From Dehalococcoidia bacterium (lineage in GTDB: Bacteria; Chloroflexota; Dehalococcoidia; Plut-88900): a DNA stretch of 64,000 nucleotides. The position numbers and the translations under genes are program-made. Below are positions 41,081 through 64,000 of this stretch, one piece after another. The stretch lies in contig OZ240215.1 in the NCBI GenBank assembly GCA_965197585.1, positions 416,001 through 480,000 of the forward strand, given 5' to 3'. Under the pieces are notes generated by a model. That model ran no database searches. It was not told where the DNA came from and saw nothing but the letters and a program-made list of their open reading frames with translations. Numbering within the stretch: the first letter of the stretch is position 1; every line of letters begins with the position of its first letter.

Positions 41081-41087
41081 ATAGCAG

Positions 41088-42768: not shown

Positions 42769-42880
42769 TTTACAAACTCCTTTGCAATGTTGAATTGAAT
42801 CATGGCATCCACTGAACTCAGGTAAAATGGCCAGTTGAGGACTTGGTCGTCGGCAATGAAGACAACGCTCATATGGCTCC

Positions 42881-47900: not shown

Positions 47901-50183
47901 GCACGCACTGTTGCCCGCCTGATTAGCATTACCGAAGACCATCGCGACATGGATGTCGAGCCTTACAGGGCACACCTAGGAATCACTGGAGCGAGTCAAG
48001 CATATGCCGGCGACGACCAAGTTTGGAGATGGTACCGAGGGACAGGAGTTGGCCCTTATCCATGCATGAGCGCATTGCAAGCACTTGAGCGTACGTGCGA
48101 CCAAATGATAAGAGTTGGCATTCCGATTACAACTCTGGTTTCGGTGCTGCTCGATGGTTGTGAGAACCTTGCGATGGTCGGCCTCGTCCTCGGTATTTTG
48201 GTGAGGCACGTTGAGCAAGCAGACTATTTACTATATCCGTACTTCACAGAACCTATCCTCTGGAGGCTTGAGTTCAGGCGAGTAGTCGACGAACAAGGCA
48301 TGTTTGCAGCCAGCTCTGAAGGAATCGAGGCACCCGACCGGCGCAAATGGTCGCTGCGAGAAGCAGCGATGTCCATGGCATTGGGAGCCACGGACGAGCG
48401 AGCCGAGGATCTTCGGTTGTTAGGAGAAACACTTATCGAAACAGCACGTCGAGAAATCAAGCAAGGACAAAGCGAAGATGGAATAGAGAATCAGGCCAAT
48501 GGCGGCGAAGACATTGAACAGCTCTTGGCACCTGTCCGTGCATGGGCCAGTAGCCTCGACCGTAACAAGTTCCAGGTCCGAGAGGCTGCGGATGGACTAT
48601 ATATCCAGGCTACGCCACCTCACGAAGTCGTTAAAGCACTTGAACTTGCAAACGAGGATCTGGAGCGGACTTCAGAGGAGATTCGGCTCACGGTTCGCTA
48701 CTACGTAAATCGCAAAGAGACTGAAGCAGAAGGAATCGAGGCTGGGGAATTGGTGGTCGACTTAGAGTCCGCACGTATGTTACTGGAGAACCCTCCGACT
48801 GTCAGTGCACATCTTCCCTGGGATGTGCCGGCCCTAGTAGTTGCTGCGGCACTCGAGGCCTACGTACTACAACAAGTTGACCTGCCAGGTGATGCATTGA
48901 CGTTCGCCGTTGACACGGTGTTACAAGTCTCAGAGATTTCGGAAGATGAAGCGTTCCGGAGACCCTTCGAATTCGAGGGCACTCTATTCGAACAAGGCGC
49001 AGACCGCAGTGCCGCGAGGGTTGTGCCACTGCTACTGACACCTTCTGCTGAGCCTTTGCGCGCGATTGGGGCGTCCGCAGACGAGTCGGTCACCGTCAAG
49101 CGCATTTCTGACGCTGGCTTGCTCCTTGCACGAGCCGTAGCCGATGAAGTGCGGCTCCACCTCGCACGCGGACTTCACCACCTCTGGGCAACGCCGTGTG
49201 TTAACCACGGGACTTGCCATCATCATACAGGGTTCGAGATCGTCAACGAGACCTTGCGCGATTGCGCGCTCGGTGAATGGGATCCCGAGTTAGAAAGACG
49301 TTCTATAGTTTTGCTTGACGAACCTATATCCGTCTCACTAGCGAACACATCTGACGATGCCATTATTGTTAGTCGCCTTGATGCATCGATACGAGCACTA
49401 GCACCTGCGTCCGCGGCTAATATTTGCGTCTCCAGCTTTGCAAGGGAATTGCTTATGGTCGTCCTCACCACTCAGAGACGATGCTTGCTCAACTACAAAC
49501 ACCCCAGCGTGGATGATCGAGGAGATCACTCCCTTGTGAGTGCGCGAGCTTTGTTGACATTAGCCGAGCACGGCGATGATGGTCCCCTACACGAGCACAT
49601 TGGTGCTTATTCTTACAGCCCGGGTCTCCTGAGCAAGCTGCTTCAAGCGCTGTCGGCGGCAGCGGAAGAGACTGAAAACCTCGCCTCAACCGCACGGCGG
49701 ATCTGGCCAAGCGTGATCCGTCAGGTAATGGACATGCCATACGCAGGACATTCACTGTTACAGGGCAGAAACTATGAAGGGACACCCATATCAGTGCTCT
49801 TGCCAAATGCAACCCCGCAGAATTCATATCTATACCAAGAGATCCGAGGAATGCCAATCGTTTGGTGGGAACCACTGGCATTAAAGGCGGAAGTCGATAC
49901 ATGGATTGGGTCTGCAGTTGGGAAAGCAAGGTGTGCCGACCAACTCATAGGTTTTCTCAGGCCTCTTTCCGCAGAAGATCAGGCTCGCGTTGGGATACCT
50001 TGGTTGTCCACTATCGTATCAGGGAATCTTGGTGACATTGCCAAGAGTAGTTTCCTGTTGACTGATTGGCTGATTGAGACGCGTTCTGCTGCTGCCGCGG
50101 TCGGCCTCTCAGCTCAATGGCAGCAGATGGTTGACGCCCTCGTAGTTGAAGGAGTCGCAAGACTTGCGCCATATTCCGAATAG
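44958..50183 (+). CDS. large STAND/NACHT-like NTPase with N-terminal nuclease-like domain (Avs/NLR-like defence protein)
   Basis: N-terminal GGGGFTFERKV...VDDLVI, Walker A GESGVGKS, Walker B LVIDGAD, FAHD, long helical C-terminus; start uncertain. Confidence 0.75.
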   Translation: MCMGYCDSEDTNIPEETLSNTGSSESLVGMSPYATGGGGFTFERKVAVKYLAHLLLGDGAVEFGEGRLAVNVEFQQAPDYPVDDLVIRAARPEEAQPSLELALGVRRSPNLVRSDVSTQKLIREFVRAVINGTADCLESRVGLVVAGPQKHAQQLGSLAGLAAAQMDAPGFFDLVHTPKKFDEGVRGRLEHMESLVEKALRDLGEANPDAALVRQRTWQLLSRLTVLMPRLESPDETDWSEVENKLIPVARGISLPGAEKLRDRLFTLASDYSPRSARVDLTILRRDAHETLDTNYRRHQQGWQILDHLHGSALQSLRYEVTDSDRIRRVSLDRSAATDRLITAVGEVDAVIVVGESGVGKSALTVRALSAGDTDTMGVLCINLRQIPRLTVEFEARLGLPLANLLGELSAPLRVLVIDGADAIAEGMEDAFRYLVISAEESGVKVVAVSGMDGMQVVDDILTDRFGDGVVKFPVESLTDTELEEIVEAFPELIGLTSNPQSRELLRRLVVVDLLVRGQLGGVPLSDADAMLEVWSGLVRRHEWLDKGHPDARESVLLRLGEYSLNGGDRLGVIDQLDTTAITGLRQDGLLQASTDNPFVSGPDFAHDEVRRYSVARLLMLERDPAKSILRAGAPRWALGAARLACQALLQEPDGATSPLRGRFDALQASFDALIQAKHGTRWGDVPSEALLSLADPSEVLRDAWGALRSNDDAGLKRLVRLVDQRHRDNSGIANLVVVEPIITLFLEASAPWQSGDFSSNLLRQWLIAHIVAGTPAGYPLRILLRERLLKAYVEGDYLLREQQKAEEAARVARTLEEAEEERPLMKGPRDLSSTIGYGGRQRRQRPAVPRECRDEVFVELLALLGPDLGEEGEKILLRIARDAPSCLAPALEESLTGDALAGYRRGLLAHLTQAYYLDDEADASAFLNDYGIRGHRSRRRRVFGPPAAWYLGPFTSLFFSDFRNGVRVLNLMLNHAAIIRARTVARLISITEDHRDMDVEPYRAHLGITGASQAYAGDDQVWRWYRGTGVGPYPCMSALQALERTCDQMIRVGIPITTLVSVLLDGCENLAMVGLVLGILVRHVEQADYLLYPYFTEPILWRLEFRRVVDEQGMFAASSEGIEAPDRRKWSLREAAMSMALGATDERAEDLRLLGETLIETARREIKQGQSEDGIENQANGGEDIEQLLAPVRAWASSLDRNKFQVREAADGLYIQATPPHEVVKALELANEDLERTSEEIRLTVRYYVNRKETEAEGIEAGELVVDLESARMLLENPPTVSAHLPWDVPALVVAAALEAYVLQQVDLPGDALTFAVDTVLQVSEISEDEAFRRPFEFEGTLFEQGADRSAARVVPLLLTPSAEPLRAIGASADESVTVKRISDAGLLLARAVADEVRLHLARGLHHLWATPCVNHGTCHHHTGFEIVNETLRDCALGEWDPELERRSIVLLDEPISVSLANTSDDAIIVSRLDASIRALAPASAANICVSSFARELLMVVLTTQRRCLLNYKHPSVDDRGDHSLVSARALLTLAEHGDDGPLHEHIGAYSYSPGLLSKLLQALSAAAEETENLASTARRIWPSVIRQVMDMPYAGHSLLQGRNYEGTPISVLLPNATPQNSYLYQEIRGMPIVWWEPLALKAEVDTWIGSAVGKARCADQLIGFLRPLSAEDQARVGIPWLSTIVSGNLGDIAKSSFLLTDWLIETRSAAAAVGLSAQWQQMVDALVVEGVARLAPYSE

Positions 50184-50583: not shown

Positions 50584-51258
50584 TCAATCATCCAGCAGCC
50601 CGTTCTGCGCAGCCCACACCACGACCTCCTGCTTCGAGTCGACGCCCAGCTTGATCTAAATGGTGTAGATGGCGTTTCGGACGGTGACCACCTTGACTCC
50701 CCTTGCCGCCGCAATCGCAACGTATGACATGCCCCGGCAGAACGACACAAGTATCTCCTTCTCCCTCTGGGTCAGGTTGACGTCCTTCGCTCTCGCCCCG
50801 CTCCGCATCCTGTGGAACACCCGCCTCACCACCTCGGTCGGCAGACGCCCCTCGCCCGCAGCCGCGCTCTTCATCATGCCCAGGACCTGGTCCATCCCGG
50901 CCACCTTCTGAAGATAGCCGGCCGCACCGGCGGCCACCGCCTCTATGACGGCGTTCGCCTCCGTCGAGGCGGTCAGCATGAGCACCCGTGTCTTGGGCAG
51001 AGACTCCATGATCTCCCGGCACGCCTCCACCCCGTCCATCTTGGGCATCATGACGTCCATGACGATCAAGTCGGGCGACAGCTCGGAGGCCGCCTTCACC
51101 GCCTCCACTCCGTCCCTGGCCTGCCCCACCACCTCGAACTCCTCGGACCGCTCCAGAATCACCTGAAGACCTTCCCGCGTGACTGAATGGTCGTCGGCGA
51201 GCAGCACCCTTATGCGACGAGACTCTGTTGACAATTTATCCCTCCTGTTGTCCGCCAC
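50584..51258 (-). pseudogene. NarL/LuxR response regulator with premature amber stop
   Basis: Intact receiver (LADDH, MDVMMP, YLQK) and LTQREKEIL HTH. After TAG at 50656-50658 the frame continues IKLGVDSKQEVVVWAAQNGLLDD*. Confidence 0.85.
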
Positions 51259-52459
51259 CGGACAATGGCATCACGCAGGTCACGCTGGCGCCCCCGGCCG
51301 GTCCCGTGGGCTCGACGATAAGGCGTCCGCCCAGACGCCCGGCGTACACCCGCATGTTTGCGAAGCCGTGGCCCCGCTCCTCGTAGTCGTCGGGAAGGCC
51401 CACCCCGTCGTCCGACACCGACAGCCTGAGCTCATCCCGTCCGAAGTCGAGATCGACCAGCACCCGGCTCGCCCCGGCATGGCGAAGGGCGTTGGCGAGG
51501 GCGTTGTGGGCTATGGAGAACAGGAGACTCCTGACCTCCACCGAAAGCGGCGGCTCCACACCGTTCTGCGTCAGCTCCGCCGACACCGACGTGATGGACT
51601 TGAACGTCGCGACGTGCGAGTCCAGGGTCCAGCCCAACTCACCGCCCTCGAATATGCGGCCCATGTCAATCGGGTGTCTCAGCTGCCAGACGGCGGTCTT
51701 GGAAAGCCGTGAGGTGGCATCGAGCCTGGCGGCGAGCTCTTCGTTCGAGTCTCCGGCAACCTGTCTGGCCGCGTCTATCCCCAGGCCGATCATGAAGGCG
51801 GTCTGGGCGGCCGTATCGTGAATGGCCTGGGAGAGCTCGATCCATTCCCGTTGCAGCTCCCTTTCCCTTTCTATCGCCGCTCTCGCCCTGCGCCGCTGAA
51901 ACCGGGTGATGAAGTTGACAACCAGGACAACCCCGAACATCGCGAGCACCCTGGAGAACAGCATCTTCTCGTTGATCCCATCGAAGGCCATGCCCGAGCC
52001 GACGGTCAGGCTCACGCCGATATATATGGAGGCGGTGATGGTCGTCCAGGTGAGATTCAGCAGAGCGGAGGTGAAGATGGCGGCAAAAGCGGCGAGGGCA
52101 GGATAGTAGGGAATGTAAAGGAAGTTGTCGAAGCCCCCATCGACGCCGCCGCTGGCCGTGATCAGGGCTATGTCCATGGCGCTGAGGACGAGCAGGTGAC
52201 GCCACGTCACCCTGCGCCGGGAGAGCAGACGGTAGTGCACGTAGCCGTTGAGTGCGACCAGCGGCACGTGCATGAGCATGAACGGAATGTACTTGGCATG
52301 GGTGAACGTCGGTCGATAGGCGAGTTCGATCACGGCGCCGGCCCAGAAGAGCCAGCGTAGCCACACCGTGACCTTGGCGGCGTACGATGCCTCGCCCGGG
52401 TCGAGCCAGAGCATCTGGAGAAGCCGCGTCTGTATTGCGCCCATCGATGTCTTTATCAA
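51236..52459 (-). CDS. membrane sensor histidine kinase (HisKA_3), paralog of 14427-15686
   Basis: ELSQAIHDTAAQ, WQLRHPIDMGRIFEG, NALRH, DDGVG. Confidence 0.9.
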   Translation of the reverse strand: MIKTSMGAIQTRLLQMLWLDPGEASYAAKVTVWLRWLFWAGAVIELAYRPTFTHAKYIPFMLMHVPLVALNGYVHYRLLSRRRVTWRHLLVLSAMDIALITASGGVDGGFDNFLYIPYYPALAAFAAIFTSALLNLTWTTITASIYIGVSLTVGSGMAFDGINEKMLFSRVLAMFGVVLVVNFITRFQRRRARAAIERERELQREWIELSQAIHDTAAQTAFMIGLGIDAARQVAGDSNEELAARLDATSRLSKTAVWQLRHPIDMGRIFEGGELGWTLDSHVATFKSITSVSAELTQNGVEPPLSVEVRSLLFSIAHNALANALRHAGASRVLVDLDFGRDELRLSVSDDGVGLPDDYEERGHGFANMRVYAGRLGGRLIVEPTGPAGGASVTCVMPLSGGGQQEG

Positions 52460-53127: not shown

Positions 53128-54393
53128 ATGACATTTCGAAGACCCAAGCTGCCAATCAAGACTGCGGTAGCCATGGCGCTGCTGGTGACGGCCGTCGTTG
53201 CCGCCTCAATGTCCATCCCGCCGAGTGGTACGGTCCTGGCCCAGTCTCCCGGCATCTGCGGCCGCACGCAGAAGGTGCAGGACGCCATCCTTGCCAAGCT
53301 GTCAGACGTTACCGCCTGCGGGGACGTCACCGATGCAAACCTGTCAGGGATAACCGGGACGCTTGCTCTGTCCGATATGGGTGTGACCACGCTCAAGTCC
53401 GGGGACTTCGCCGGTCTCAGCGGGTTGCAGGAACTGAAACTGGACGACAACCAGATCAGCTCGCTGCCCGAGGACATCTTCTCCGGACTCGCCGGACTCG
53501 AACGCCTGAACCTGACCTTCACCGAGGTGAGCTCGCTCCCGGAGAACCTGTTCGACGGCCTGACCAACCTACAGAACCTGAAGCTGTACCAGAACGGTCT
53601 TACGGCGCTGCCTGAGGAAATATTCGATGGCCTGACCAACCTGAAGGATCTCACATTCACCGCCAACAAGGTCAGCGCGCTCCCGGAGGAAGTGTTCGAT
53701 GGGCTAACTAGCCTCAACTCACTGGAGCTCCCCAGGAATTCGGTCGCTGCATTGCCGGAGGAGGTGTTCGACGGGCTCACCAACCTGATGGCCCTGAACC
53801 TGCACCAGAACAAGATCACCGCGTTGCCCGAGGGGGTGTTCGACGGCCTCGGCAATTTGACGTGGTTGTACCTGAGCAGGAACGAACTCACGGCGTTGCC
53901 CTCGGGCGTATTCGAAGACCTTGGCGAACTGCAGCAACTGACCCTGTTCAACAACAAAATCACGGCGTTGCCCTCAGGCGCGTTCGAGGGTCTGGGCGAT
54001 TTGAATTCCTTAGTCATGAGTCATAACCAGATATCAACATTGCCCGCAGGCGTGTTCGAAGGCCTCGGAAATCTGGATAGCGTGGAATTCGACCAAAACC
54101 CCGGGGCGCCGTTCACCATCACTGCGGAGTTGGAAAAGAAGGGCGCCGGTGTGGTCGTCAGTATCGACGAGGGAGCTCCGTCTTCGTTGTCGGTAACCCT
54201 TTCGGCCACGGGGGGCACGCTTTCCACGGACACTGTCACCATCGCTCGTGGCGCCCTGGAGAGCGAGACCGTCACCGTGACGGCATCCGGCACGGTCACG
54301 GTCAGCGTCGATTCGGTTGCTAAGAGTGGGACCAGGCTCATAGGTCTTGAGATAGTCGCCGGCAGTGACCTGACGCTTGTGGGGGGGATGTAG
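53128..54393 (+). CDS. secreted leucine-rich-repeat protein
   Basis: Signal peptide, Cys N-cap GICGRT...CGDV, about 10 LxLxxNxITALPEGVFDGL repeats, beta-rich tail. Confidence 0.9.
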   Translation: MTFRRPKLPIKTAVAMALLVTAVVAASMSIPPSGTVLAQSPGICGRTQKVQDAILAKLSDVTACGDVTDANLSGITGTLALSDMGVTTLKSGDFAGLSGLQELKLDDNQISSLPEDIFSGLAGLERLNLTFTEVSSLPENLFDGLTNLQNLKLYQNGLTALPEEIFDGLTNLKDLTFTANKVSALPEEVFDGLTSLNSLELPRNSVAALPEEVFDGLTNLMALNLHQNKITALPEGVFDGLGNLTWLYLSRNELTALPSGVFEDLGELQQLTLFNNKITALPSGAFEGLGDLNSLVMSHNQISTLPAGVFEGLGNLDSVEFDQNPGAPFTITAELEKKGAGVVVSIDEGAPSSLSVTLSATGGTLSTDTVTIARGALESETVTVTASGTVTVSVDSVAKSGTRLIGLEIVAGSDLTLVGGM

Positions 54394-54532
54394 ATGGCCC
54401 GCCCATACAACAGCGGAAGAAGCACGGCCATGGACGGCGCACCGCGTCGCTCAGCATTCGAGCTACACAGGGTCCCACCGATAGGAGTGACAGATTGAGG
54501 GAACCCACATGGAGACGGAGAGGAGGAGACCG

Positions 54533-55609
54533 GTGAGGAAGCTGCGATTCCAGACGACGGCCGTTCTGGCTGTCCTCGTCCCGCTTCTCCTGGTCGCCTG
54601 TGGTGATGGGGATGCTGGGTTGTCCCGCGCCGAGGTTGAGGAGATCGTGCGCGCGGAGATTGCGGAAGCGCCTGCGACGCCCCAGTCGGAACGCGGGCTT
54701 ACCCGCGCCGAGGTGGAACAGATAGTGCAGGACGCCATCGCGGACGTCCCCGACCCGCAACCGGGACTCACGTCCTCGGAGGCAGAGCGGATAGCCCGCG
54801 GCGTGATCGCGTCCATCCCGCCCAAGTCCGCCCTTGCCGAGTACACCCGGTACTTCGTGGGCAACGCCGTCAGCCTATACGAGACCCAGGGACTCGACGC
54901 GACCCTGGCCTACTACAACCGCCCGGAGAGCATCGACGGCCAGTGGTACCTGTTCATCATCGACGAGAATGGCCTCGCCATCGCTCACCCCGACCCGGGC
55001 CGCCTGGGACTCGACCTAAAGGGCTGGGTGGGGACCGACGCCAACGGTTACAACTTCGGGCCGGACATGCTCTCAGCCACCGAGGAGGGCAAGTGGGTGT
55101 CCTACGTATACAGGAACCCGGAGAGCGGCGGACTCGGTTCCGACAACACCGGGGCCATGCAGCTCAAGAACGCCTGGGTTGTGAAGCACGATGGGCTGCT
55201 GTTCGCCTCCGGCTGGTATGTCAACGCCGACGAATTCACCAGGTCCCTGGTGTTCGCCGCCGTTAACAAGTTCCGTTCGGCAGGACTGGAAGCGACCATC
55301 GCATACTTCACTGGCCCCGAGAGCGTCTATTCAGGACTGGCAGCGACTATCGACTACTACAACAGCGCCCAGACCGTCGAAGGGGAATGGTTCGCGTTCA
55401 TAGCCGACAGCAGCGGCACGATCGTAGACCACTACAACAAAGCACTGGTGGGAACGGACCTCAAAGACCTGCTCGGCACGGATGTGTTCGAGGCCACCGC
55501 AGAGGGCAACTGGGTGACCACGGAGGACGTGCGCGTTTGGGTGGTCGGCTACGACGGGATGACCTTCGGGTCGGGCTGGCATAGCGGCCACGACGAATCG
55601 GGTAGCTGA
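54533..55609 (+). CDS. stand-alone tandem Cache-domain lipoprotein
   Basis: AGGAGG RBS and GTG start, lipobox LLVAC, three GLxxAEVEEI repeats, YLFIIDENG..IAHP and GKWVSY...FASGWY Cache motifs, then a second copy. Confidence 0.75.
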   Translation: MRKLRFQTTAVLAVLVPLLLVACGDGDAGLSRAEVEEIVRAEIAEAPATPQSERGLTRAEVEQIVQDAIADVPDPQPGLTSSEAERIARGVIASIPPKSALAEYTRYFVGNAVSLYETQGLDATLAYYNRPESIDGQWYLFIIDENGLAIAHPDPGRLGLDLKGWVGTDANGYNFGPDMLSATEEGKWVSYVYRNPESGGLGSDNTGAMQLKNAWVVKHDGLLFASGWYVNADEFTRSLVFAAVNKFRSAGLEATIAYFTGPESVYSGLAATIDYYNSAQTVEGEWFAFIADSSGTIVDHYNKALVGTDLKDLLGTDVFEATAEGNWVTTEDVRVWVVGYDGMTFGSGWHSGHDESGS

Positions 55610-55775
55610 GCGGAGGGGGACCCGTCGCTCGGTTTTCCGGGCAACAAGGGCCGCATACATGGATACGTCCGAGCTTCGAAGGCGGCGGGAGAACGGGCTT
55701 GCTTAGGCCCTCCCGGCTGACGGCTTGGACATCCCATTGCTTAGGGGATTGCGGTCGTCCGTGAGAAGGATTGGT

Positions 55776-55912
55776 GCCACTTTCGTTTATGCCGGCAAGA
55801 GCGCAAAGTCGCAGAAACACTCTCCCTGAGAGCAAACATATTGCCGCCCCCAAAAGTGTGATTAGGCACTTACCAAATCGATGCAGAGTCTCTAGTGTTT
55901 TCATGGGGCAAT
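55776..55912 (+). promoter_or_regulatory. conserved upstream element, copy 2
   Basis: Collinear with 52897-53032. Confidence 0.6.
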
Positions 55913-56187
55913 GCCTAAGAAGAATGACAACATAAGCGGAATCACAGGCCGCCGCTCTACGTGCGGACAGCGGAGGAGGCCGTAGGCTCCGCTCATCCCG
56001 CCCGTGCAGAGGGAGGCATTCATTTGGCGCTCGACAGACCGGTCCATGCACCTGAGACGGCGGATGGAGGGATGGCCCCTGCCGTCGCTGCACCGGTCGC
56101 TCTGGGGTCCGCAGCGCGCGGCGACCTAGCACAGATGCCCCCCCGGGTTTATCGATTCTTCGTGCTGGGTAGAAAAAGGGTGGTGCC

Positions 56188-59100
56188 ATGACTCTACCCA
56201 GCCGCCGTGCTCTTCTAACCCTCCTCATCCTTCCCGGGCTACTAGCCCTATTCGCCCTGTACTTGGTCATACCCTGGTCCACAGCCTCCGCGCAGCAAGC
56301 CTCACAGGAGGGTACGTGTCCCGGAGCCGACTCAGCCCCGACGCCGACCGTGGTAGAGGTTGGGGCCGTTCCTATCGTGGTCGAGTCTACTACCGACGAG
56401 TACTTCGTGCTCTATGTACGGCACGATCTGGACGCGGACACCACGTTTGAAGTACCGGTCGGGGTAACCCTGGGCCAGGACGGCGCCACGACGCTGACCG
56501 AGAGCTTGGAGGCACTGCCCAAAGAGCGCTACCGGGTGGAGAAATACCTCGTCAGCGACCCCGCCGATGTCGATGGCGATTGCACTGATGACATTACAGA
56601 GCTGGCGGACCCGGTGGGCATGAACCCGGTGAACCCTGTCCCAGCCATGAGTTTTGACGATGGCGCGGCGGCCATTCCTAACCGCGAGACGTATGTGTCG
56701 CTTGCCTACAAGGGCGACAGCGGTATCGACAGCCATCTCAGGAACCTGGAGGCCGTCAAATTCCATATGGTCGACATGAACACCGACCGCCCATCCGTCT
56801 ATTTCATGAACACCAAGACGTACCGACGACACGATGACTTCCAGGCGGCCGTTGGTCTCGAGGTCAACCCACTCCACGGACATGAGACGATGGTCGCCGA
56901 GATGGTATACCACCCGAAAGCGGTCGCTCCCGACGGGTCTCTGGGTGTTTATCGTTTCCAGTTCGGGGCCAACGATGTCTACTCTTTCAAAGAGATCTCC
57001 TATGCGTTCACGGTTCTGGCAGCCAGCATGCCGCTGCTGGAAGAAAACCTCGCCTATTACCCGATGTGGTCGAAGGCGGTGGCACGCTATCACGAGGATC
57101 AGTCTCTCTATGATGATTCCCGGGTCGACGTGCTGCTTGCAGAAGACATCGCTTTCGATCTGGATTTCATCTCCCTCAACCCAGGGGAGGGGTTCGGATT
57201 CCTGCGGGTCATGTCGCTGGAGGAACGCCCCAACCCTCGCGACATCGTGATCTACGAGACGCTGCCAAACGATCTCTCCCGCGTTGCCGGAATCATCACC
57301 ACCGTACCCCAAACGCCGCTTTCGCATGTCAACCTGCGCGCGGTGCAGGACGGCGTCCCCAACTCCTTTATTCGAGACGCCCTCGAAGACGGCGACATCG
57401 ATGGCCTGATCGGCAGCTACGTCCAATACCTGGTGGGCTCGTCCGGCTACTTCCTCCGCGCCGCCACACCCGAGGAAGTGGATGCCCACTACAAAGCCTC
57501 GCGGCCCTCTGAGACGCAAACGCCGGAACGGGACCTCACGGTCACGGAGATCACGGCCCTGAGCGACATTGAATTCGACGACTGGAACGCGTTCGGCGTC
57601 AAGGCGGCGAACGTGGCCGTTCTGCGGACCCTGGGTTTTCCTGACGGCACCGTCCCAGACGGGTACGCGGTGCCGTTCTATTTCTACGACGAGTTTATGA
57701 AGCACAACGAGTTCTATGACGATGTGGAGGAGATGCTGGCTGACTCGGACTTCCAGTCGGACTTCGAGACCCAGGAGAAAGAGCTCAAGAAACTCCGCAA
57801 GAAAATCAAGAAGGGCGAGACCCCGGAGTGGATTATCGCGGCGCTGACGGAGATGCACTCCAAATACCCTGAGGGGCAATCGCTGCGCTACCGGTCCAGC
57901 ACCAACAACGAAGACCTGCCCGGTTTCAGCGGCGCGGGGCTGTACGACTCCAAGACCCAGCATCCCGATGAGACCGAAGAAGACGGGATTGCCAAATCGC
58001 TCAAGCAGGTGTACGCCAGCCTGTGGAACTTCCGGGCCTTCACCGAACGCGATTTCTATCGCGTCGATCACCTGGCGGCGGCGATGGGGGTGCTGGTGCA
58101 TCCCAACTACTCGGACGAACTGGCCAACGGCGTCGCCGTCAGCTTCGATCCTATCCGAATGAGATACGGAAATTACTACGTCAACACGCAGCTCGGGGAG
58201 GACCTGGTCACCAATCCCGACGCGCACTCGGCGCCGGAGGAAATCCTGTTGCACCAGGGCGGTGAGTATACCGTCCTCGCGACCTCCAACCAGATGCAGC
58301 GGGGGCAACTCCTTATGAGCGACGCCCAAATGGATCAGTTGCGCCGTCATCTCGAACTGATCCATGACGAGTTCGCCAAGCTGTACGGCATCGAGGGCGA
58401 TGAGCCGTTCGCCATGGAGATCGAGTTCAAGATCACCAGTGACGATATTCTGTCGATCAAGCAGGCCCGCCCCTGGGTCTTCGGCGACGACGTGCCATCG
58501 GAAAACGACCCGGCCACCGGAGCGCCCACCATCAGTGGGACGGTTCAGGTGGACGAGACGCTGACGGCGGACATCTCGGGCATCGCCGACGCCGATGGGC
58601 TGACCAGCTTGTTGTACGGCTCCCTCTACAGCTACCAATGGATTCGGAACGATGGAACGACGGAGACGGACATTGAGGACGCCGCAAACTCCACCTATAC
58701 CCTGTCGGACGCCGACGTGGGAAAGACCATCAGGGTGCGGGTGAGCTTTACCGACGACCGGGGCTACGAGGAGACGCTGACCAGCACAGCAACCACTGCC
58801 GTCACCCGGCCCAACAGCCCGGCCACGGGAGCGCCCACCATCAGTGGGACGGCTCAGGTGGGCGAGACGCTGACGGCGGACATCTCGGGCATTGCAGATG
58901 CCGATGGGCTGACCAGCTTGTTGTACGGCTCCCTGTACAGCTACCAATGGATTCGGAACGATGGAACGACGGAGACGGACATCGAGAATGCCACAAGCTC
59001 GACCTATACCCTGTCGGACGCCGACGTGGGAAAGACCATCAAGGTGCGGGTGAGCTTCACCGACGACTGGGGTCATGAAGAGAACTTAGTCAGCGCGGCG

Positions 59101-62100
59101 ACGACCGCTGTGCAGCCTCGTCCCAACAGCCCGGCCACGGGAGCGCCCACCATCAGTGGGACGGCTCAGGTGGACGAGACGCTGACGGCGGACATTTCGG
59201 GCATCGCCGACGCCGACGGGCTGAATAGCGTTTCTTACAGCTACCACTGGATTGCCAACGATGGGACCACCGACACGGACATACTGGGAGCGACCAGCTC
59301 CACCTACACACTGTCGGACGACGATGTGGGCAAGACCATCAAGGTGTGGGTGAGCTTCACCGACGACTGGGGTCATGAAGAGAACTTGGTCAGCGCGGCG
59401 ACGACCGCTGTGCAGCCTCGTCCCAACAGCCCGGCCACGGGAGCGCCCACCATCAGTGGGACGGCCCAGGTGGGCGGGACCCTCACGGCGGACGTTTCCG
59501 GCATCACCGACGCCGACGGGCTGACCAACGCTTCGTACATTTATCAGTGGATTGCAAACTATGGGACCACCGACACGGACATAAGCGGTCAGACAGGCTC
59601 GACCTACACCCTGGTCTCCGCCGACGTGGGCAAGACCATCAAGGTGCGGGTGGGCTTCACCGACGACGCCAACAACAGCGAGACCCTGACCAGCGAGGCG
59701 ACGGCGACGGTGCCGACGGCGGACGAGTGGTGGGCGGATATGTTGGTGGTGGATTACGGCACCGGCGCCATCGGCGCCGCCAGCGCCGATCTCTTTTCGA
59801 ACTCCGGGGGCAACGCTGGCCTTGAGGCAAAGTGGCTGTGGTACTACTCTCCGGAGCGGAAGCTTCGCTTGGCTTTTACGGATAACGTTCCCAACGTCAT
59901 CGACCTGACGCTGCTAGTTGGCGATGTCGCGCTGGCATTACAGGGAGGGGATGCCACCTTTACCTGGGAAGACGTCGACGTCGATTGGGAGGACGGTCAG
60001 ACCCTTACGACGCGCATCGTACGTGATTGGACGAGTGCGGTCGTCGCCCTCAACAGCCCGGCCACTGGGTTGCCGACCATCATTGGCACGGCTCAGGCGG
60101 GCGAGACGCTGACAGCGGACGGTTCCGGCATCAACGATGAGGACGGGCTGACCAGCGTTTCGTACAGCTACCAGTGGATTTCCAACGACGGGACCACCGA
60201 CACGGACATCCAGGACGCCACGGATTCCACCCACACCCTGACCGACGACGACGCAGGCAAGACCATCAAGGTGCGGGTGTCCTTCACCGACGACGCCGAC
60301 CACGAGGAGACGCTGACCAGCGGGGCGACGGGGGTGGTTGCGGCCAAGCCCAACTCTCCGGCCGCGGGAGCGCCGACCATCATTGGTACGGCCCAGGCGG
60401 GCGAGACGCTGACGGCGGACGTTTCTAGCATCGCCGACGTCGACGGGCTGACCAACGTTTCCTACAGCTACCAGTGGATCAGGAGCGACAACGGCACCGA
60501 CGCCGACATTGGGGGTCAGACAGCTTCGACCTACACCCTGTCCGACGAGGACGAGGGCAAGGCCATCAAAGTGAAGGTGTCCTTCACCGACGACGCCGAC
60601 CACGAGGAGACGCTGACCAGCGCGGCGACGGGGGTGGTTGCGGCCAAGCCCAACTCTCCAGCCACCGGGTTGCCGACCATCATTGGCACGGCCCAGGCGG
60701 GCGAGACGCTGACAGCGTACGTTTCCGGCGTCAACGATGAGGACGGGCTGACCAGCGTTTCGTACAACTATCAGTGGATTGCCAACGACGGTAACACCGA
60801 CACCGACATATCGGGACAGACGGACTCCACCTACACCCTGACCGACGCTGCCGCAGGCAAGACCATCAAGGTGCGGGTGTCCTTCACCGACGACGCCGAC
60901 CACGAGGAGACGCTGACCAGCGCGGCGACGGGGGTGGTTGCGGCCAAGCCCAACTCTCCAGCCACGGGAGCGCCGACCATCGGCGGCACGCCCCAGGTGG
61001 GCGGGACGCTGTCGGCGGACACCTCCGGCATATCGGACGACGACGGGTTGACCAACGTCTCTTACAGCTACCAGTGGCTGTCCGGAGGGTCGGACATCGC
61101 CGGAGCCACCGGGTCCAGCTACACCCTCAAGGACGTGCAGAAAGGGCAGACAATCCAAGTGCGGGTCTCCTTCCGCGACGATGCCGACAACGATGAGACG
61201 CTGACCAGCGATACGACGGCGACGGTGGTGGGGCCGCCGCTGACCGTCGGCAGCGATTTCACTCTGGACGCCGCCAACGGCTATCCGACCGGCATCTGGT
61301 CGGACGGGACCACCATGTGGGTCGCGGACTTCGAGGACGCCAAGCTGTACGCCTACCGGATGTCCGACCGGAGCCGGGATTCAGGTAAGGATTTCACTCT
61401 GGACGCCGCCAACGGCTCTCCGGTGGGCATCTGGTCGGACGGGACCACCATGTGGGCGTCGGACTTCGCCGACGGCAAGCTGTACGCCTACCGGATGTCC
61501 GACCGGAGCCGGGACTCGGGCAAGGACTTCAACACGTTGTCCGCCGCCGGCAACCTCTTTCCCGAGGGCATCTGGTCGGACGGGACCACCATGTGGGTCG
61601 CGGACACCGGCAACGACACGGTGTTCGCCTACGACCTGTCTACCAGGGCCTGGGACTTCGAGAAGGACATCACGCTGGGCCCCGGCCACGGTTCTCCGAT
61701 GGGCGTCTGGTCGAACGGATCCACGATGTGGGTTTCGGACTGGCGGGACGCCAAGCTGTACGCCTACCGGATGTCGGACCGGAGCCGGGACGCCGGCAAA
61801 GACTTCGCGCTGGACGCCGACGATGAATCTTACGAGGGCATCTGGTCGGCCGGGTCCACGATGTGGGTGGCGTCCCGCGACGACGCTAAGCTCTACGCCT
61901 ACGACTGGAACAATCCTGCCACGGGAGCGCCGACGATCATCGGCAGGGTCCGGGTGGACGAGACGCTGACGGGGGGCACCCGCTCCATCGCCGACGCGGA
62001 CGGGCTGGACGCCGCCATCTTCGAATATCAATGGGTTTCGAACGGCGGGAACGCCGACACGGACATCGCGGGCGCGACCGATTCGACCTACACCATCGTC

Positions 62101-64000
62101 CCCGGCGACCGGGGCAGGACGATCAAGGTCAGGGTGTCCTTCACCGACGGCGCCGGCAACGATGAGTCGCTGACCAGCGAGCCGACGGGCCGGATCGGGG
62201 CCTCGGGCATCTGCGACCGGACGCCTTCGGTGATGGCGGCTATCGTCGCCGGGATGCCCGGCGTCGGCGACTGCTCGGAGGTTTCCGAGACGAGGCTCAG
62301 GACGTGGACCGGCTCCCAGCACTTCGGCCCCGACGTCACGCCCGGGCTGTACCTGCAGGGGAGAGGACTGTCGGCCCTGCAGGCCGGGGATTTCCGGGAC
62401 CTGCACGCGCTGCGCGCCCTGGACCTGAACAGAAACTTCCTCCAGACGGTCCCGGATGGACTCTTCGATGACCTCCGGGCGGTGGAGGAGCTGTATCTGT
62501 CGGGAAACTTCATTGACGAACTGCCTGACGGGACGTTCGCCGGCCAAACCGCGAATCTGAGCGTTCTGGACCTGTCGGCGAACGGCCTGGAGACGCTGCC
62601 GGACGGCGTGCTGCGAGACCTGGCCGGACTCGTCTCGCTGTCGCTCGCGGGCAACGGGCTCGTGCACCTCCCGGGCGGACTTTTCGACGACCTGGCTAGG
62701 CTCGAAGTTCTGGACCTGTCCGCCAACTCGATAGACGAGCTGCCGGAAGAGGTGTTCGGCGGTCTCGGCGACCTGCAGAGTCTTTCCCTCGCGGGGAACG
62801 ACCTGAAGAGCCTGCCGGAGGACGTGTTCGCCGACCTCGGGAGCCTCGGAGAGCTGGACCTTTCGGGAAACGAGCTCAAGAACCTGCCCGTCGGCGTCTT
62901 CGAAGGTCTGTCGGGGCTGACGGACCTCGACGCAGGCGACAATCCGGGCGCACCTTTCACGTTCACCGCAGAGCTGGAGCGTCGGGGAGACGATACGGTC
63001 ATGGTCCGATTGGGCGAAGGCGCGACGCCGTTTGATCTTCAGATCGAACTGTCGGCCCGTAACGGAGATCTGTCCGCCGAGACCGTCACCATCGCATCAG
63101 GCAGTTCATATTCGAACGTTGTGGAGGTTCGTCCGCACGGGCATCATCTCGTCACAGTGGAAATCGACTCAGTTGCTTTCCTGGTGCCTGCAGGAGGCTC
63201 CACGTCGGGAATCCGCGCCGACCGCGGCAGTGACATGCATTTGTGGGTCGGCAGACCATTGGTTCAAAGGGAATGGATCCAGGACGAAGATTTTGCTCTG
63301 CATCCGGAGAACGCGGACCCGAAGAGCATATGGTCGGACGGCGAAACGCTGTGGGTCGGCGACGATGCCGCTGCCAAGGTGTTCGCCTACAAGCTGTGGG
63401 ACGACCCCGGCACCGAGGCCAGCGAGTACGGGACCCGAGACCCCGGCAGGGACGTTCCGAGCCTCGGCGAGGAGGACTTCTACGTCACCGGCCACGGCCT
63501 CCGATTGTACGTCGCCGAAGAGTCCCTTGACGGCGCCAGCCGGGACGTATTCGGCTACGACCTGACGAGTTTCACGCGCGCGGAAGATCGGGACTTCGTC
63601 TACGGGGGCTTGAACGTCGCCGGGGGAGTGTTCATCGTGCGCGGCACGGCGACGGACGGCCGTCACCTGTGGATCACCAACACCACGTCGCACGCGCACG
63701 CCTTCCGTCTGTTCGACGACCCTGAGACGCCGGAGGACGAATACGGGAGGCCGGACACGTCCCGGAAGCTGACGATGCCCGGCTCGGGCCAGCTGAGCGG
63801 CCTGTTCACCGACGGACGGACGATGTGGGGCGTCAGGTTCGCCTCGAACGACGCCTCGGTGCGGAGCGTGAAACTGTCCGACGGGACCGAGGCGGGGTAC
63901 GACTTTCCGCTCCACGAGGACAACGACCACGCCTCCGGCATCTGGTCGAACGGGGAGACCTTCTACGTCGTCGACGCCGCCGACGACATGATCTACACCT
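56188..64000 (+). CDS. giant exported protein (>2600 aa, runs off the window): dikinase-like module, Ig-like repeats, beta-propeller repeats and LRRs
   Basis: One open frame from ATG 56188. Signal peptide ending ASA-Q. TPLSHVNLRA (His at 57325), GVKAAN, RSSTNNEDLPGFSGAGLYDS, EIEF and QARP. Nine PATGAPTIxGT units, GIWSDGTTMWV repeats and an LRR block. Confidence 0.9.
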   Translation, partial: MTLPSRRALLTLLILPGLLALFALYLVIPWSTASAQQASQEGTCPGADSAPTPTVVEVGAVPIVVESTTDEYFVLYVRHDLDADTTFEVPVGVTLGQDGATTLTESLEALPKERYRVEKYLVSDPADVDGDCTDDITELADPVGMNPVNPVPAMSFDDGAAAIPNRETYVSLAYKGDSGIDSHLRNLEAVKFHMVDMNTDRPSVYFMNTKTYRRHDDFQAAVGLEVNPLHGHETMVAEMVYHPKAVAPDGSLGVYRFQFGANDVYSFKEISYAFTVLAASMPLLEENLAYYPMWSKAVARYHEDQSLYDDSRVDVLLAEDIAFDLDFISLNPGEGFGFLRVMSLEERPNPRDIVIYETLPNDLSRVAGIITTVPQTPLSHVNLRAVQDGVPNSFIRDALEDGDIDGLIGSYVQYLVGSSGYFLRAATPEEVDAHYKASRPSETQTPERDLTVTEITALSDIEFDDWNAFGVKAANVAVLRTLGFPDGTVPDGYAVPFYFYDEFMKHNEFYDDVEEMLADSDFQSDFETQEKELKKLRKKIKKGETPEWIIAALTEMHSKYPEGQSLRYRSSTNNEDLPGFSGAGLYDSKTQHPDETEEDGIAKSLKQVYASLWNFRAFTERDFYRVDHLAAAMGVLVHPNYSDELANGVAVSFDPIRMRYGNYYVNTQLGEDLVTNPDAHSAPEEILLHQGGEYTVLATSNQMQRGQLLMSDAQMDQLRRHLELIHDEFAKLYGIEGDEPFAMEIEFKITSDDILSIKQARPWVFGDDVPSENDPATGAPTISGTVQVDETLTADISGIADADGLTSLLYGSLYSYQWIRNDGTTETDIEDAANSTYTLSDADVGKTIRVRVSFTDDRGYEETLTSTATTAVTRPNSPATGAPTISGTAQVGETLTADISGIADADGLTSLLYGSLYSYQWIRNDGTTETDIENATSSTYTLSDADVGKTIKVRVSFTDDWGHEENLVSAATTAVQPRPNSPATGAPTISGTAQVDETLTADISGIADADGLNSVSYSYHWIANDGTTDTDILGATSSTYTLSDDDVGKTIKVWVSFTDDWGHEENLVSAATTAVQPRPNSPATGAPTISGTAQVGGTLTADVSGITDADGLTNASYIYQWIANYGTTDTDISGQTGSTYTLVSADVGKTIKVRVGFTDDANNSETLTSEATATVPTADEWWADMLVVDYGTGAIGAASADLFSNSGGNAGLEAKWLWYYSPERKLRLAFTDNVPNVIDLTLLVGDVALALQGGDATFTWEDVDVDWEDGQTLTTRIVRDWTSAVVALNSPATGLPTIIGTAQAGETLTADGSGINDEDGLTSVSYSYQWISNDGTTDTDIQDATDSTHTLTDDDAGKTIKVRVSFTDDADHEETLTSGATGVVAAKPNSPAAGAPTIIGTAQAGETLTADVSSIADVDGLTNVSYSYQWIRSDNGTDADIGGQTASTYTLSDEDEGKAIKVKVSFTDDADHEETLTSAATGVVAAKPNSPATGLPTIIGTAQAGETLTAYVSGVNDEDGLTSVSYNYQWIANDGNTDTDISGQTDSTYTLTDAAAGKTIKVRVSFTDDADHEETLTSAATGVVAAKPNSPATGAPTIGGTPQVGGTLSADTSGISDDDGLTNVSYSYQWLSGGSDIAGATGSSYTLKDVQKGQTIQVRVSFRDDADNDETLTSDTTATVVGPPLTVGSDFTLDAANGYPTGIWSDGTTMWVADFEDAKLYAYRMSDRSRDSGKDFTLDAANGSPVGIWSDGTTMWASDFADGKLYAYRMSDRSRDSGKDFNTLSAAGNLFPEGIWSDGTTMWVADTGNDTVFAYDLSTRAWDFEKDITLGPGHGSPMGVWSNGSTMWVSDWRDAKLYAYRMSDRSRDAGKDFALDADDESYEGIWSAGSTMWVASRDDAKLYAYDWNNPATGAPTIIGRVRVDETLTGGTRSIADADGLDAAIFEYQWVSNGGNADTDIAGATDSTYTIVPGDRGRTIKVRVSFTDGAGNDESLTSEPTGRIGASGICDRTPSVMAAIVAGMPGVGDCSEVSETRLRTWTGSQHFGPDVTPGLYLQGRGLSALQAGDFRDLHALRALDLNRNFLQTVPDGLFDDLRAVEELYLSGNFIDELPDGTFAGQTANLSVLDLSANGLETLPDGVLRDLAGLVSLSLAGNGLVHLPGGLFDDLARLEVLDLSANSIDELPEEVFGGLGDLQSLSLAGNDLKSLPEDVFADLGSLGELDLSGNELKNLPVGVFEGLSGLTDLDAGDNPGAPFTFTAELERRGDDTVMVRLGEGATPFDLQIELSARNGDLSAETVTIASGSSYSNVVEVRPHGHHLVTVEIDSVAFLVPAGGSTSGIRADRGSDMHLWVGRPLVQREWIQDEDFALHPENADPKSIWSDGETLWVGDDAAAKVFAYKLWDDPGTEASEYGTRDPGRDVPSLGEEDFYVTGHGLRLYVAEESLDGASRDVFGYDLTSFTRAEDRDFVYGGLNVAGGVFIVRGTATDGRHLWITNTTSHAHAFRLFDDPETPEDEYGRPDTSRKLTMPGSGQLSGLFTDGRTMWGVRFASNDASVRSVKLSDGTEAGYDFPLHEDNDHASGIWSNGETFYVVDAADDMIYT
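58510..61230 (+). repeat. ~300-bp intragenic repeats encoding Ig-like domains
   Basis: Units start near 58510, 58819, 59131, 59431, 60058, 60358, 60658 and 60958; a ninth lies near 61915. Confidence 0.9.

Follow-up and report, generated by a model that had tools for sequence, protein, structure and literature searches.

Introduction

Dikinases that combine an ATP-grasp domain with a phosphohistidine relay are, to our knowledge, textbook enzymes of the cytoplasm or of plastids. We know of no exported ATP-grasp or His-swivel dikinase, and literature searches returned no paper on exported dikinases, on the family described below or on a dikinase-like cassette in giant repeat proteins. Eukaryote-like repeat proteins form a category of giant surface proteins in sponge symbionts.

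For glucan water dikinase (GWD1), the published description (PMC13553574) has the central domain first, then the His domain and, joined through a very short linker, the ATP domain; the central domain is all-helical, with 20 helices in ~440 aa, and the ATP domain aligns best with that of rifampin phosphotransferase (RPH). A second report (PMC12167813) places a substrate domain ahead of the His domain in HpeH and PpsA, and describes a T/SxxGGxxxH loop in RPH and the phenol dikinases.

The gene studied here was analysed in a window, the whole stretch of 64,000 nucleotides of DNA from a Dehalococcoidia bacterium, for which an exported dikinase-like enzyme had been proposed from the letters of the sequence (hereafter called the original prediction). 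It codes for a module whose domains (model residues 1-290, 291-394 and 416-739) follow the same order as those of GWD1 and PWD, and a PEP/pyruvate barrel occurs in neither. The module differs from GWD in being bacterial and exported, in having a Cys pair and an Asp cluster, and in lying often inside surface proteins of several thousand residues.

The giant open reading frame and its N-terminus

The open reading frame (56188..>63999, forward strand) remains open to the end of the window and corresponds to 2604 aa inside the window and 4167 aa in the genome. It can be called only with open ends allowed, which may be why it was absent from the ORF track. A signal-like N-terminus is followed by three parts, a ~290-aa N-domain, a swivel His domain and a PPDK_N ATP-grasp domain. 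The motifs quoted in the original prediction (ASA-QQ, PQTPLSHVNLRA, GVKAAN, RSSTNNEDLPGFSGAGLYDS and QARP) were all found in the translation.

The rest of the giant protein within the window (58510..63999, forward strand) consists of Ig-like, IWSDG, LRR and further repeats, assigned by Pfam and by repeat positions. C-terminal to the dikinase-like module there are nine copies of an Ig-like repeat of ~100 aa, five copies of a 45-aa 'IWSDG' repeat (aa ~1702-1930) and an LRR block (aa ~2124-2247); Pfam identified Ig repeats of the IG_AIR9 type (AIR9 A9-type) and LRR_8 downstream of the module, in agreement with the Ig-like and LRR repeats noted earlier. Beyond the window, up to aa 4167, Pfam found a GSDH domain and FN3. 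Pfam matches to Ribosomal_S28e, NCH3, DUF6346 and flgE_D3 coincide with repeat motifs and were rejected as false. The PEP-utilizers_C TIM barrel was absent by Pfam from aa 1-2604 and from aa 2501-4167, i.e. from the whole protein, so that the absence of a PEP/pyruvate barrel first noted for the window extends to the remainder of the polypeptide.

The first 35 aa (56188..56292, forward strand) contain RR, a hydrophobic run of ~23 aa and ASA-QQ (aa 33-37), as expected from the predicted signal peptide. With a crude hydrophobicity/AxA heuristic, rather than a trained predictor, 50 of 74 homologous ORFs had signal-like N-termini, compared with 0 of 35 cytosolic controls; of the 24 ORFs failing the heuristic, some can be recognised by eye as lipoprotein- or signal-like and others begin within a repeat. 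A paralog in the same genome has a typical AQA-Q signal, then 1800 aa of repeats and then the dikinase-like module (aa ~1826-2550). Cys44 and Cys132 are the sole two Cys among the first 780 aa of the window protein, and both are conserved. Export is favoured by the signal-like N-termini, the two conserved Cys, the invariant Asp cluster described below, the extracellular fusion partners and the layout of the paralog. Judged by the N-termini (heuristic) and the partner domains, the module appears to belong to Sec-exported or cell-surface proteins. The genome also encodes a separate cytosolic enzyme of 759 aa with PPDK_N and PEP-utilizers domains.

The family-specific N-domain

The secondary structure was taken from an AF2 model of the module (mean pLDDT 87.2, pTM 0.66). 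In this model the N-domain (56293..57162, forward strand; aa 36-325) consists of a beta-sandwich subdomain, an Asp-rich stretch (DPADVDGDCxDDITEL, 56557..56604, forward strand; aa 124-139) and a mixed alpha/beta subdomain, with about 11 strands and 9 helices across 290 aa. It is thus beta-rich or mixed, whereas the corresponding domain of GWD1 is a ~440-aa bundle of 20 helices (PMC13553574).

The region, previously pointed out as a domain of ~300 aa unlike known ones, measures ~290 aa and has no Pfam or PDB sequence match. Pfam was silent on aa 1-471 of the window protein even at E ≤ 10, and the N-domains of 40 out of 40 members had no match at the same E value, scattered noise apart. The best PDB profile match, to prolyl oligopeptidase, had an E of 0.19 and was rejected as noise; the best score of an ESM Atlas query with the N-domain was 0.78, to generic Ig clusters, and was set aside as below the useful range. 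These searches (Pfam, PDB profile and ESM Atlas) gave neither a recognisable fold nor a sugar-binding signature. No carbohydrate-binding family, including the starch-binding CBM45 and CBM20 types, matched aa 1-471 or the 40 N-domains, the presence of the CBM45 model in the library being unconfirmed.

Conservation was counted over 393 distinct modules from five phyla, each denominator being the number of modules in which that position is occupied. The Cys pair (C44, 237/240; C132, 296/322) is conserved, and the Asp cluster (D127, 320/321; D129, 321/321; D131, 321/322; D135, 322/322) and three further polar residues (K191, 306/321; H215, 328/332; R312, 335/339) are invariant or nearly so. Among the kept loci the N-domain has 41-62% identity, compared with 53-72% for the whole module, and its greater divergence fits a specificity domain. 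A profile search with the N-domain gave 395 matches to short proteins (147-517 aa), many of them probably fragments or split genes; in the 120 short-protein matches listed, the sole partner families were FN3 and cadherin-like ones.

The swivel phosphohistidine-type domain

The swivel phosphohistidine-type domain (57163..57477, forward strand; aa 326-430) was assigned by fold match and contains QTPLSHVNLRA. The predicted phospho-acceptor, His380 (codon 57325-57327, forward strand), lies within PQTPLSHVNLRA (aa 374-385, nt 57307-57342). With VIA-align, model residues 291-394 matched the C-domain of pyruvate kinase (2e28, Z 9.8, 98 aligned), Enzyme I (2wqd, Z 9.2) and the phosphoryl carrier of PPDK (2fm4, Z 8.1, rmsd 3.3, 99 residues), so that the His motif of the original prediction falls inside a domain predicted to fold like swivel phosphohistidine domains, the Z values being moderate (8.1-9.8). 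In the model His380 opens a helix (model residues 345-353) after a strand (model residues 333-336) and a loop, a swivel-type placement. An hhalign alignment to the His domains of PEP synthases (PEPS) pairs LSH with TSH of GGxTSHAAI and puts the His on the catalytic His, although weakly (E 0.12). The residue is kept in 342 of 345 modules; the other three are the only ones without a His.

No Pfam cut-off is reached by the His domain, which has drifted from the PF00391 profile (PEP-utilising mobile domain), with changes that extend to the GG loop preceding the His. At that place the window module has TVPQTPLSH, compared with T/SxxGGxxxH in enzymes of the RPH and HpeHI type (PMC12167813). None of 70 family His regions matched PF00391, for which the single match in the genome was the cytosolic 759-aa enzyme. 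Of the Pfam families belonging to the His-swivel dikinase superfamily, the His region of these 70 members matched PF22973 (GWD1_pHisD) alone, in 18 of them at E ≤ 10 and in all cases below the cut-off (best E 0.003). The paralog reached 13.2 bits against a cut-off of 27, and the window copy had no match at E ≤ 10.

The likeness to GWD put forward in the original prediction therefore stands for the order, His domain before ATP-grasp, and for the sub-threshold PF22973 matches, and fails for membership. GWD membership was rejected because PF22973 stays below its cut-off and the N-domain is not all-helical; the profile searches found no starch-binding module.

The ATP-grasp domain

The ATP-grasp domain of the PPDK_N/RPH type (57538..58512, forward strand; aa 451-775) contains GVKAAN (aa 470-475), RSSTNNEDLPGFSGAGLYDS (aa 569-588), EIEF and QARP (within aa 758-763). 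The Pfam PPDK_N model (PF01326) matched aa 469-763 over profile positions 4-309 of 328 (E 5.5e-25, 88.8 bits, cut-off 27), so the domain called complete beforehand is near-complete, with its residues intact and almost invariant. K472 is kept in 344 of 345 modules, R569 in 342 of 342, E744 in 334 of 338 and E746 in 336 of 338, and in the C-terminal motif Q759 is found in 337/337 and R761 in 334/336. The conserved Lys and Arg are taken by us to be the equivalents of K22 and R337 of PPDK; the PDB titles of 1jde and 2dik name K22/R337 PPDK mutants. Over the 393 distinct modules, conservation of His380 and of the nucleotide-site residues amounts to 98.8-100%.

The structure comparison suggested with the original prediction gave RPH as the best match of the ATP-grasp domain (5hv1, Z 28.0, rmsd 2.5, 294 aligned), followed by HpeI (9goj, Z 22.4) and PPDK (1vbg, Z 15.0) in VIA-align, and PEPS (2ols, 9.3e-15) in Foldseek. 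The family profile matched PEPS 9dae with an E of 2.6e-16, and the GGK, RSS..ED, D/ExE and QARP motifs align in the profile to the solved PEPS chains 9dae and 2ols. The VIA-align matches listed (best 50) are all to model residues 291-745; the GWD central-domain entries 9HA9 and 9QVI lie outside this list, which is uninformative either way.

The module's ATP domain, like that of GWD1, is closer to RPH than to PPDK. With RPH and the HpeHI, CreHI and PpsAB enzymes the module would share a His-swivel dikinase mechanism without a PEP barrel, and these include its best ATP-grasp structural matches. RPH, however, has the ATP-grasp domain first and a large rifampin-binding domain, and the 5hv1 match covers only the module's ATP-grasp; the NCBIfam RPH model gave the window protein 56.6 bits against a cut-off of 999. 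RPH and the phenol dikinases are moreover cytoplasmic and act on small molecules, whereas the module occurs on exported proteins. With PEPS and PPDK it shares a homologous ATP-grasp (PPDK_N, 9dae, 2ols) and the same swivel carrier fold (2fm4), but its His domain precedes the ATP-grasp, the reverse of their order, and the TIM barrel is missing from the 4167 aa. Membership of PEP synthase or PPDK was ruled out by the lack of PEP-utilizers_C and by NCBIfam scores far below the cut-offs (PEPS, 73 bits, cut-off 598; PPDK, 14.7, cut-off 843).

Distribution of the family

A 780-aa query matched 4319 representative proteins at E ≤ 1e-3, a result well beyond chance. The 150 matches listed all have E ≤ 1e-173, most of them over aa ~40-768 in one stretch; about 30 of the 150 are broken into two, and in about 15 the match starts or stops within the module. 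The unit of ~730 aa was confirmed as 584 stretches across species-representative genomes and constitutes a large undescribed family, the N-domain of which has no Pfam model. When the ESM Atlas was queried with the His and ATP-grasp domains, the matches were bacterial clusters of the PPDK_N-only kind, 440-580 aa long and with scores of 0.94-0.98. In one cluster PF22973 is present on 15% of the members, a lead towards a wider bacterial His-plus-ATP-grasp core family.

Five phyla contribute MAGs with members of the family, and their sequences are mixed with one another on the tree; some of the MAGs belong to genera named for sponges. Within the class the family is patchy (13 of 201 genomes, and in the genus itself none of 6 others) and multi-copy. 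The module is also represented by contigs from four RNA libraries with the label 'sponge metagenome', at up to 99% identity, for example one of 495 nt with 3 differences; such contigs can contain DNA and are no proof of transcription.

A survey of homolog architectures, also suggested with the original prediction, placed the module in proteins with cadherin, FN3, Ig, Big, Calx-beta, P-domain, SLH, sulfatase and sugar-dehydrogenase domains, at the N-terminus, in the middle or at the C-terminus of the carrier. GSDH occurs on the same polypeptide in the window protein and its paralog and in 12 of 354 family sequences, and sulfatase with SGSH_C in 2 of 18 long members (5 of the 354). One member has F5/8-C, SusE-like and arabinosidase-N-like stretches. 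Among 116 flanking ORFs there was no conserved neighbour gene, such as one for a phosphatase, transporter or nucleotide exporter; these ORFs are mainly transposases, defence genes and other repeat proteins.

The carriers resemble the giant repeat proteins of sponge symbionts in their signal peptide, their LRR, cadherin, FN3 and Ig repeats, their multiple copies and their patchy occurrence across phyla, and in having transposases and defence genes nearby. They differ in that the repeats carry enzyme cassettes, namely the dikinase-like module, GSDH and sulfatase.

Discussion

On balance, though with considerable doubt, we regard the module of ~775 aa as an exported, catalytically competent phosphotransferase of the dikinase type, a member of the His-swivel superfamily with a GWD-like domain order. 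The ATP-grasp domain would bind a nucleotide triphosphate and Mg; His380 of the swivel domain would attack the beta-phosphate, with release of AMP, and the gamma-phosphate would go to water as Pi. The carrier domain would then pivot to the N-domain and pass its phosphate to an acceptor; the N-domain as the acceptor site is a guess. Since the module is exported, alone or within surface proteins, the acceptor would be extracellular and, as with GWD, a polymer standing apart from the metabolism of the enzyme itself. The most likely candidates appear to be glycans or matrix polymers, either from the sponge host or from the bacterial surface. A glycan as such is proposed tentatively; it is hinted at by the GSDH, sulfatase/SGSH_C and F5/8-C-type partners, which are found in a small minority of the family. 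The scarcity of ATP outside cells speaks against an exported phosphotransferase.

It is most improbable that the hydrophobic N-terminus is no working signal and the protein an ordinary cytoplasmic ATP-dependent dikinase. The use of a heuristic and the h-region, unusually long at ~23 aa, would allow this, but the positive charges before the hydrophobic run would leave the bulk of the protein outside, cleaved or uncleaved, the paralog carries its module behind a signal and 1800 aa of repeats, partners such as SLH, cadherin and sulfatase are of extracellular types, and the cytosolic role has its own 759-aa enzyme in the genome. The problem of ATP supply would be solved if the giant protein, or a fragment of it, reached the sponge cytosol or a compartment, e.g. 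by phagocytosis, and phosphorylated a host molecule with host ATP. The LRR, cadherin, FN3 and Ig-like repeats beside the module resemble eukaryote-like proteins reported from sponge symbionts, and the sponge-named genera and the sponge RNA libraries agree with such a role. We nevertheless consider it unlikely, as Pfam and the flanking ORFs gave no sign of a translocation domain, a secretion-system signal or secretion genes nearby, the variable position of the module is unlike that of typical delivered toxin domains, and both the conserved Cys pair and the Asp cluster suit surroundings outside the cell that are oxidising and rich in Ca.

An exported and active module might also pass its phosphate to water or to nothing specific, converting ATP to AMP and 2 Pi with the N-domain only docking the enzyme, and so blunt host purinergic signalling or harvest phosphate. 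The catalytic evidence (fold, conservation and motif alignment) is the same for such an activity as for an exported phosphotransferase, and a dikinase would go from ATP to AMP directly. This would fit a report on a freshwater sponge, a different species, which contracts in response to extracellular ATP and ADP but not to AMP, and in which apyrase alters the response (PMC11883242). Pfam and PDB profile searches revealed no recognisable acceptor-type domain. Yet a three-domain swivel machine is elaborate for plain ATP hydrolysis, which apyrases and nucleotidases, much simpler enzymes, already perform, and the N-domain always accompanies the module, its invariant K191, H215 and R312 suggesting a second active site, so that we give this possibility a low probability, if a little higher than that of delivery into host cells. 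Reuse of a dikinase-like fold for binding or structure (nucleotides, phosphorylated ligands or matrix), with ATP turnover lost, would suit a module set among adhesion-type repeats, the lack of an obvious extracellular ATP supply and the departure of the His domain from the PF00391 profile, GG loop included. GWD, an active enzyme, likewise lacks a GG loop before its His. Such a relic is improbable: across the 393 modules hardly any variation is seen at the phospho-His, Lys, Arg and QxR positions or at the two acidic metal ligands, which would be unexpected without catalysis.

For an exported phosphotransferase, a wider role can be outlined that is possible, if rather doubtful in its full extent. 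The family would then represent the first branch of His-swivel dikinases to work outside the cell, a horizontally shared, multi-copy cassette mounted on giant surface proteins by sponge symbionts from at least five phyla. It would phosphorylate glycans of the host matrix or surface with ATP from host tissue, much as GWD phosphorylates starch, and so make them accessible to sulfatase and oxidase domains of the same polypeptides; it would also turn a host signal, ATP and ADP, into inert AMP. The multiple copies, the patchy and intermixed occurrence across phyla and the coverage in sponge RNA libraries make the module a candidate niche-specific symbiosis factor. A conserved exported form of these dikinases would imply that symbionts use extracellular nucleotides, or that extracellular polymers undergo a new kind of modification.

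Domain organization and predicted structure

The open reading frame of the window protein starts at position 56188 on the + strand and is open at the window end, coding for 2604 amino acids inside the window and 4167 in the genome, which is a single 3.43-Mb contig with 92 % completeness. The gene may be missing from the earlier ORF track because it appears only if open-ended frames are allowed. The original prediction's overall description was confirmed, and every motif it quoted was found in place: a signal-like N-terminus (RR, a hydrophobic run of ~23 amino acids and ASA|QQ, by inspection), a PPDK_N-type ATP-grasp domain (Pfam PPDK_N, aa 469-763, E 5.5e-25, 88.8 bits, profile 4-309 of 328) and, downstream of PPDK_N, Ig-like (IG_AIR9-type) and LRR_8 repeats. 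Amino acids 1-471 had no Pfam match, even at E ≤ 10. The NCBIfam models for PEP synthase (73 bits, cut-off 598) and rifampin phosphotransferase (RPH; 56.6 bits, cut-off 999) matched only with their N-terminal ATP-grasp parts. Repeats of 45 amino acids (GIWSDGTTMWV...KLYAY; window 61291-61980, + strand, aa ~1702-1930, and also at aa 2380 and 2584) drew spurious Pfam matches to Ribosomal_S28e and NCH3. Past the window end the protein runs 1563 amino acids further, including a glucose/sorbosone dehydrogenase domain (GSDH, PF07995, aa 3021-3352, E 1.3e-66), a predicted second enzyme cassette on the polypeptide bearing the dikinase-like module, and a terminal FN3 domain (Pfam).

The AlphaFold2 model of the module, numbered from aa 36 and built with a 62-sequence alignment, had a mean pLDDT of 87.2 and a pTM of 0.66, and a single-sequence fold a pLDDT of 33.6. 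[quoted passage not shown] Residues 291-394 (aa ~326-429) resembled swivel phosphohistidine domains, namely the C-domain of B. stearothermophilus pyruvate kinase (2e28, Z 9.8, 98 residues), Enzyme I (2wqd, Z 9.2) and the PPDK phosphoryl carrier domain (2fm4, Z 8.1, rmsd 3.3, 99 residues). In the model a strand and a loop lead into a short helix that begins with His380, the placement described for the catalytic His of GWD1 (PMC13553574). When the family's His region was aligned locally, profile against profile, with PEP-utilizers domains of 29 cytosolic enzymes, LSH stood opposite TSH of GGxTSHAAI, a weak match (E 0.12).

The N-domain (first 290 model residues) consists, in order, of a beta-sandwich, an Asp-rich stretch that is invariant in the family (DPADVDGDCxDDITEL) and a mixed alpha/beta subdomain. 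It had no Pfam relative in any of 40 members scanned, no relative by sequence in the PDB (best E 0.19) and no useful neighbour in the ESM Atlas.

Comparison with known dikinases

The enzyme superfamily of the module is already known. The module is ordered like glucan water dikinase (GWD) and, judged by its sequence and model, would work like it. GWD1_pHisD was the only Pfam family of this superfamily matched by the His region (18 of 70 members, best E 0.003), and genome-wide its sole match was the His region of a paralog (E 0.14). The original interpretation was supported in part, with the dikinase-type parts, their order and the export features standing. The module is not a member of GWD: every GWD1_pHisD match fell below the cut-off, and the N-domain differs from the central domain of 20 helices on the acceptor side of GWD. 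Searches of aa 1-471 and of 40 N-domains also gave no starch-binding module. Assignment to PEP synthase or PPDK failed on the missing barrel and the reversed domain order. The module is probably no RPH either, as the 5hv1 alignment was restricted to ATP-grasp residues and gave no rifampin-binding-like match. Bacterial PPDK_N-only proteins of 440-580 amino acids lay near the module in the ESM Atlas, which suggests that this wider set is its next of kin. The literature search found no paper on the exported setting or N-domain of the module, nor on its cassette-like spread in giant surface proteins or its cross-phylum distribution in sponge-associated MAGs.

Family size, conservation and distribution

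A 780-amino acid query matched 4319 representative clusters at E ≤ 1e-3 and 1259 at E ≤ 1e-30. Among the 150 matches listed, all had E ≤ 1e-173 and most spanned aa ~40-768 as one stretch, while ~30 were split in two and ~15 began or ended within the module; their carrier proteins had 658-3769 amino acids, and the module is N-terminal, central or C-terminal in them. The full module was present in 214 of 263 library proteins, 22 of these 214 being essentially stand-alone, and one library protein (P0002) has two modules. At least 584 module stretches were confirmed from 599 pattern matches (one genome per species). Loci L049 (9021-11789) and L064 have a second copy at most 4 kb away, and in L023, L037 and L056 the module is spread over two ORFs (frameshift, pseudogene or assembly error).

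Conservation was counted over 393 distinct module sequences, the denominator being the sequences not gapped at that position. His380 was kept in 342/345 (three modules lack it), Lys472 in 344/345, Arg569 in 342/342, Glu744 in 334/338 (Asp in the other four), Glu746 in 336/338, Gln759 in 337/337 and Arg761 in 334/336. The nucleotide-site motifs line up with GGK, RSS..ED, DIE and QARP in PEP synthase structures. Divergence is greatest in the N-domain (41-62 % identity vs 53-72 % over the whole module, kept loci), where the polar residues Lys191, His215 and Arg312 are nevertheless invariant.

The best 80 loci among the at least 584 stretches came from MAGs titled Dehalococcoidia/Tepidiformaceae, Acidimicrobiia (including Ca. 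Poriferisodalis, Poriferisocius and Aldehydirespirator), Acidobacteriota, Latescibacterota and Thermodesulfobacteriota. On a FastTree phylogeny of 66 modules the phylum labels require 12 changes against a minimum of 4, with starred branches forcing at least 7 for Chloroflexota, a mixing that could come partly from paralogy and binning errors. The near-identical sister modules of L046 and L047 (MAGs titled Terriglobia and Thermodesulfobacteriota; terminal branches 0.06-0.08) stem from a recent transfer or else from a binning artefact. In searches across the class, 13 of 201 genomes matched the profile of the N-domain, one of them with as many as 6 copies, and the 6 further genomes of the window organism's genus gave no match. 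Four RNA-seq runs from one study, labelled sponge metagenome, contain the window stretch: their contigs, 90-99 % identical to it, reached every one of the 30 bins of 54000-64000 (one stretch of 495 nt within the ATP-grasp has 3 differences), a coverage compatible with expression but no proof of it, as such contigs may include DNA.

Probable export, partner domains and gene neighbourhood

A signal-peptide heuristic combining charge, a hydrophobic window and small-x-small was positive in 50 of 74 homologous ORFs starting inside their locus, compared with 0 of 35 controls (long ORFs from cytosolic PEP synthase loci). Of the 24 ORFs that failed it, several can be seen to resemble signal peptides or lipoproteins, or begin within repeats. 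The module has only two Cys, both conserved (C44 in 237/240, C132 in 296/322), and the domains that accompany it are of extracellular kinds (cadherin, FN3, Big, Calx-beta, P-domain, PKD, SLH). In the Dehalococcoidia clade (window 56188-56292, L010-L018) the predicted signal peptides share an S/T-R-R-L/A motif ahead of the hydrophobic run and a final AQAQ or ASAQ, and their twin Arg may be Tat-like.

The paralog (G000:C1:228601-242724, L120, outside the window) is a 4707-amino acid protein with a typical AQA|Q signal and an internal module (aa ~1826-2550, 71 % identity); it further carries LRR, Ig-like repeats and GSDH (aa 1388-1716), the sugar-dehydrogenase domain it has in common with the window protein. 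The 45-amino acid repeat also opens the paralog, directly after its signal peptide. Among 18 long members scanned, two had sulfatase and SGSH_C, one GSDH, and one F5/8-C, SusE-like and arabinosidase-N-like stretches; among 354 module-bearing sequences, GSDH occurred in 12 and sulfatase in 5.

No conserved partner gene was found among 116 flanking ORFs, many of which encode transposases, defence functions or further repeat proteins. Directly upstream of the module gene is a Cache-domain protein (54509-55609, +), as also in L006 and L008, preceded by an LRR_8 protein (53128-54393, +), a two-component pair of response regulator and HisKA_3/HATPase_c histidine kinase (50656-52459, −), a 1741-amino acid ORF (44958-50183, +) whose sole family match is a weak AAA_22 (E 9e-4), and a defence-type cluster (39833-43909, −) of a CAP12/Pycsar-type TIR-domain protein, a type I R-M specificity subunit and an N6 DNA methylase.

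Proposed mechanism and alternatives

In the proposed mechanism the ATP-grasp domain would bind the nucleotide, the beta-phosphate would pass to His380 with release of AMP and transfer of the gamma-phosphate to water, and the carrier domain would then swing to the N-domain and phosphorylate an external acceptor. This type of mechanism is established for PPDK, PEP synthase, RPH, HpeHI and GWD1 (PMC12167813; PMC13553574). The main difficulty is nucleotide supply outside the cell. In a freshwater sponge, extracellular ATP and ADP are contraction signals and AMP is not (PMC11883242); ATP is thus present in sponge tissue, where an enzyme converting ATP to AMP might affect signalling as well. The main alternative, that the exported module acts as such an enzyme on sponge signalling, draws on this same response.

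Other alternatives are that the module is delivered into host cells, that it is a non-catalytic relic, or that it is an enzyme which is not exported. The residue conservation makes the family look catalytically active, and signal-like N-termini, paired Cys and extracellular partner domains make export the best-supported location. An exported dikinase-type phosphotransferase, its catalysis suggested by fold, order and conservation, is the best-supported reading, and the sugar-active partner domains, a minority, give a hint, though only a hint, that it may act on glycans.
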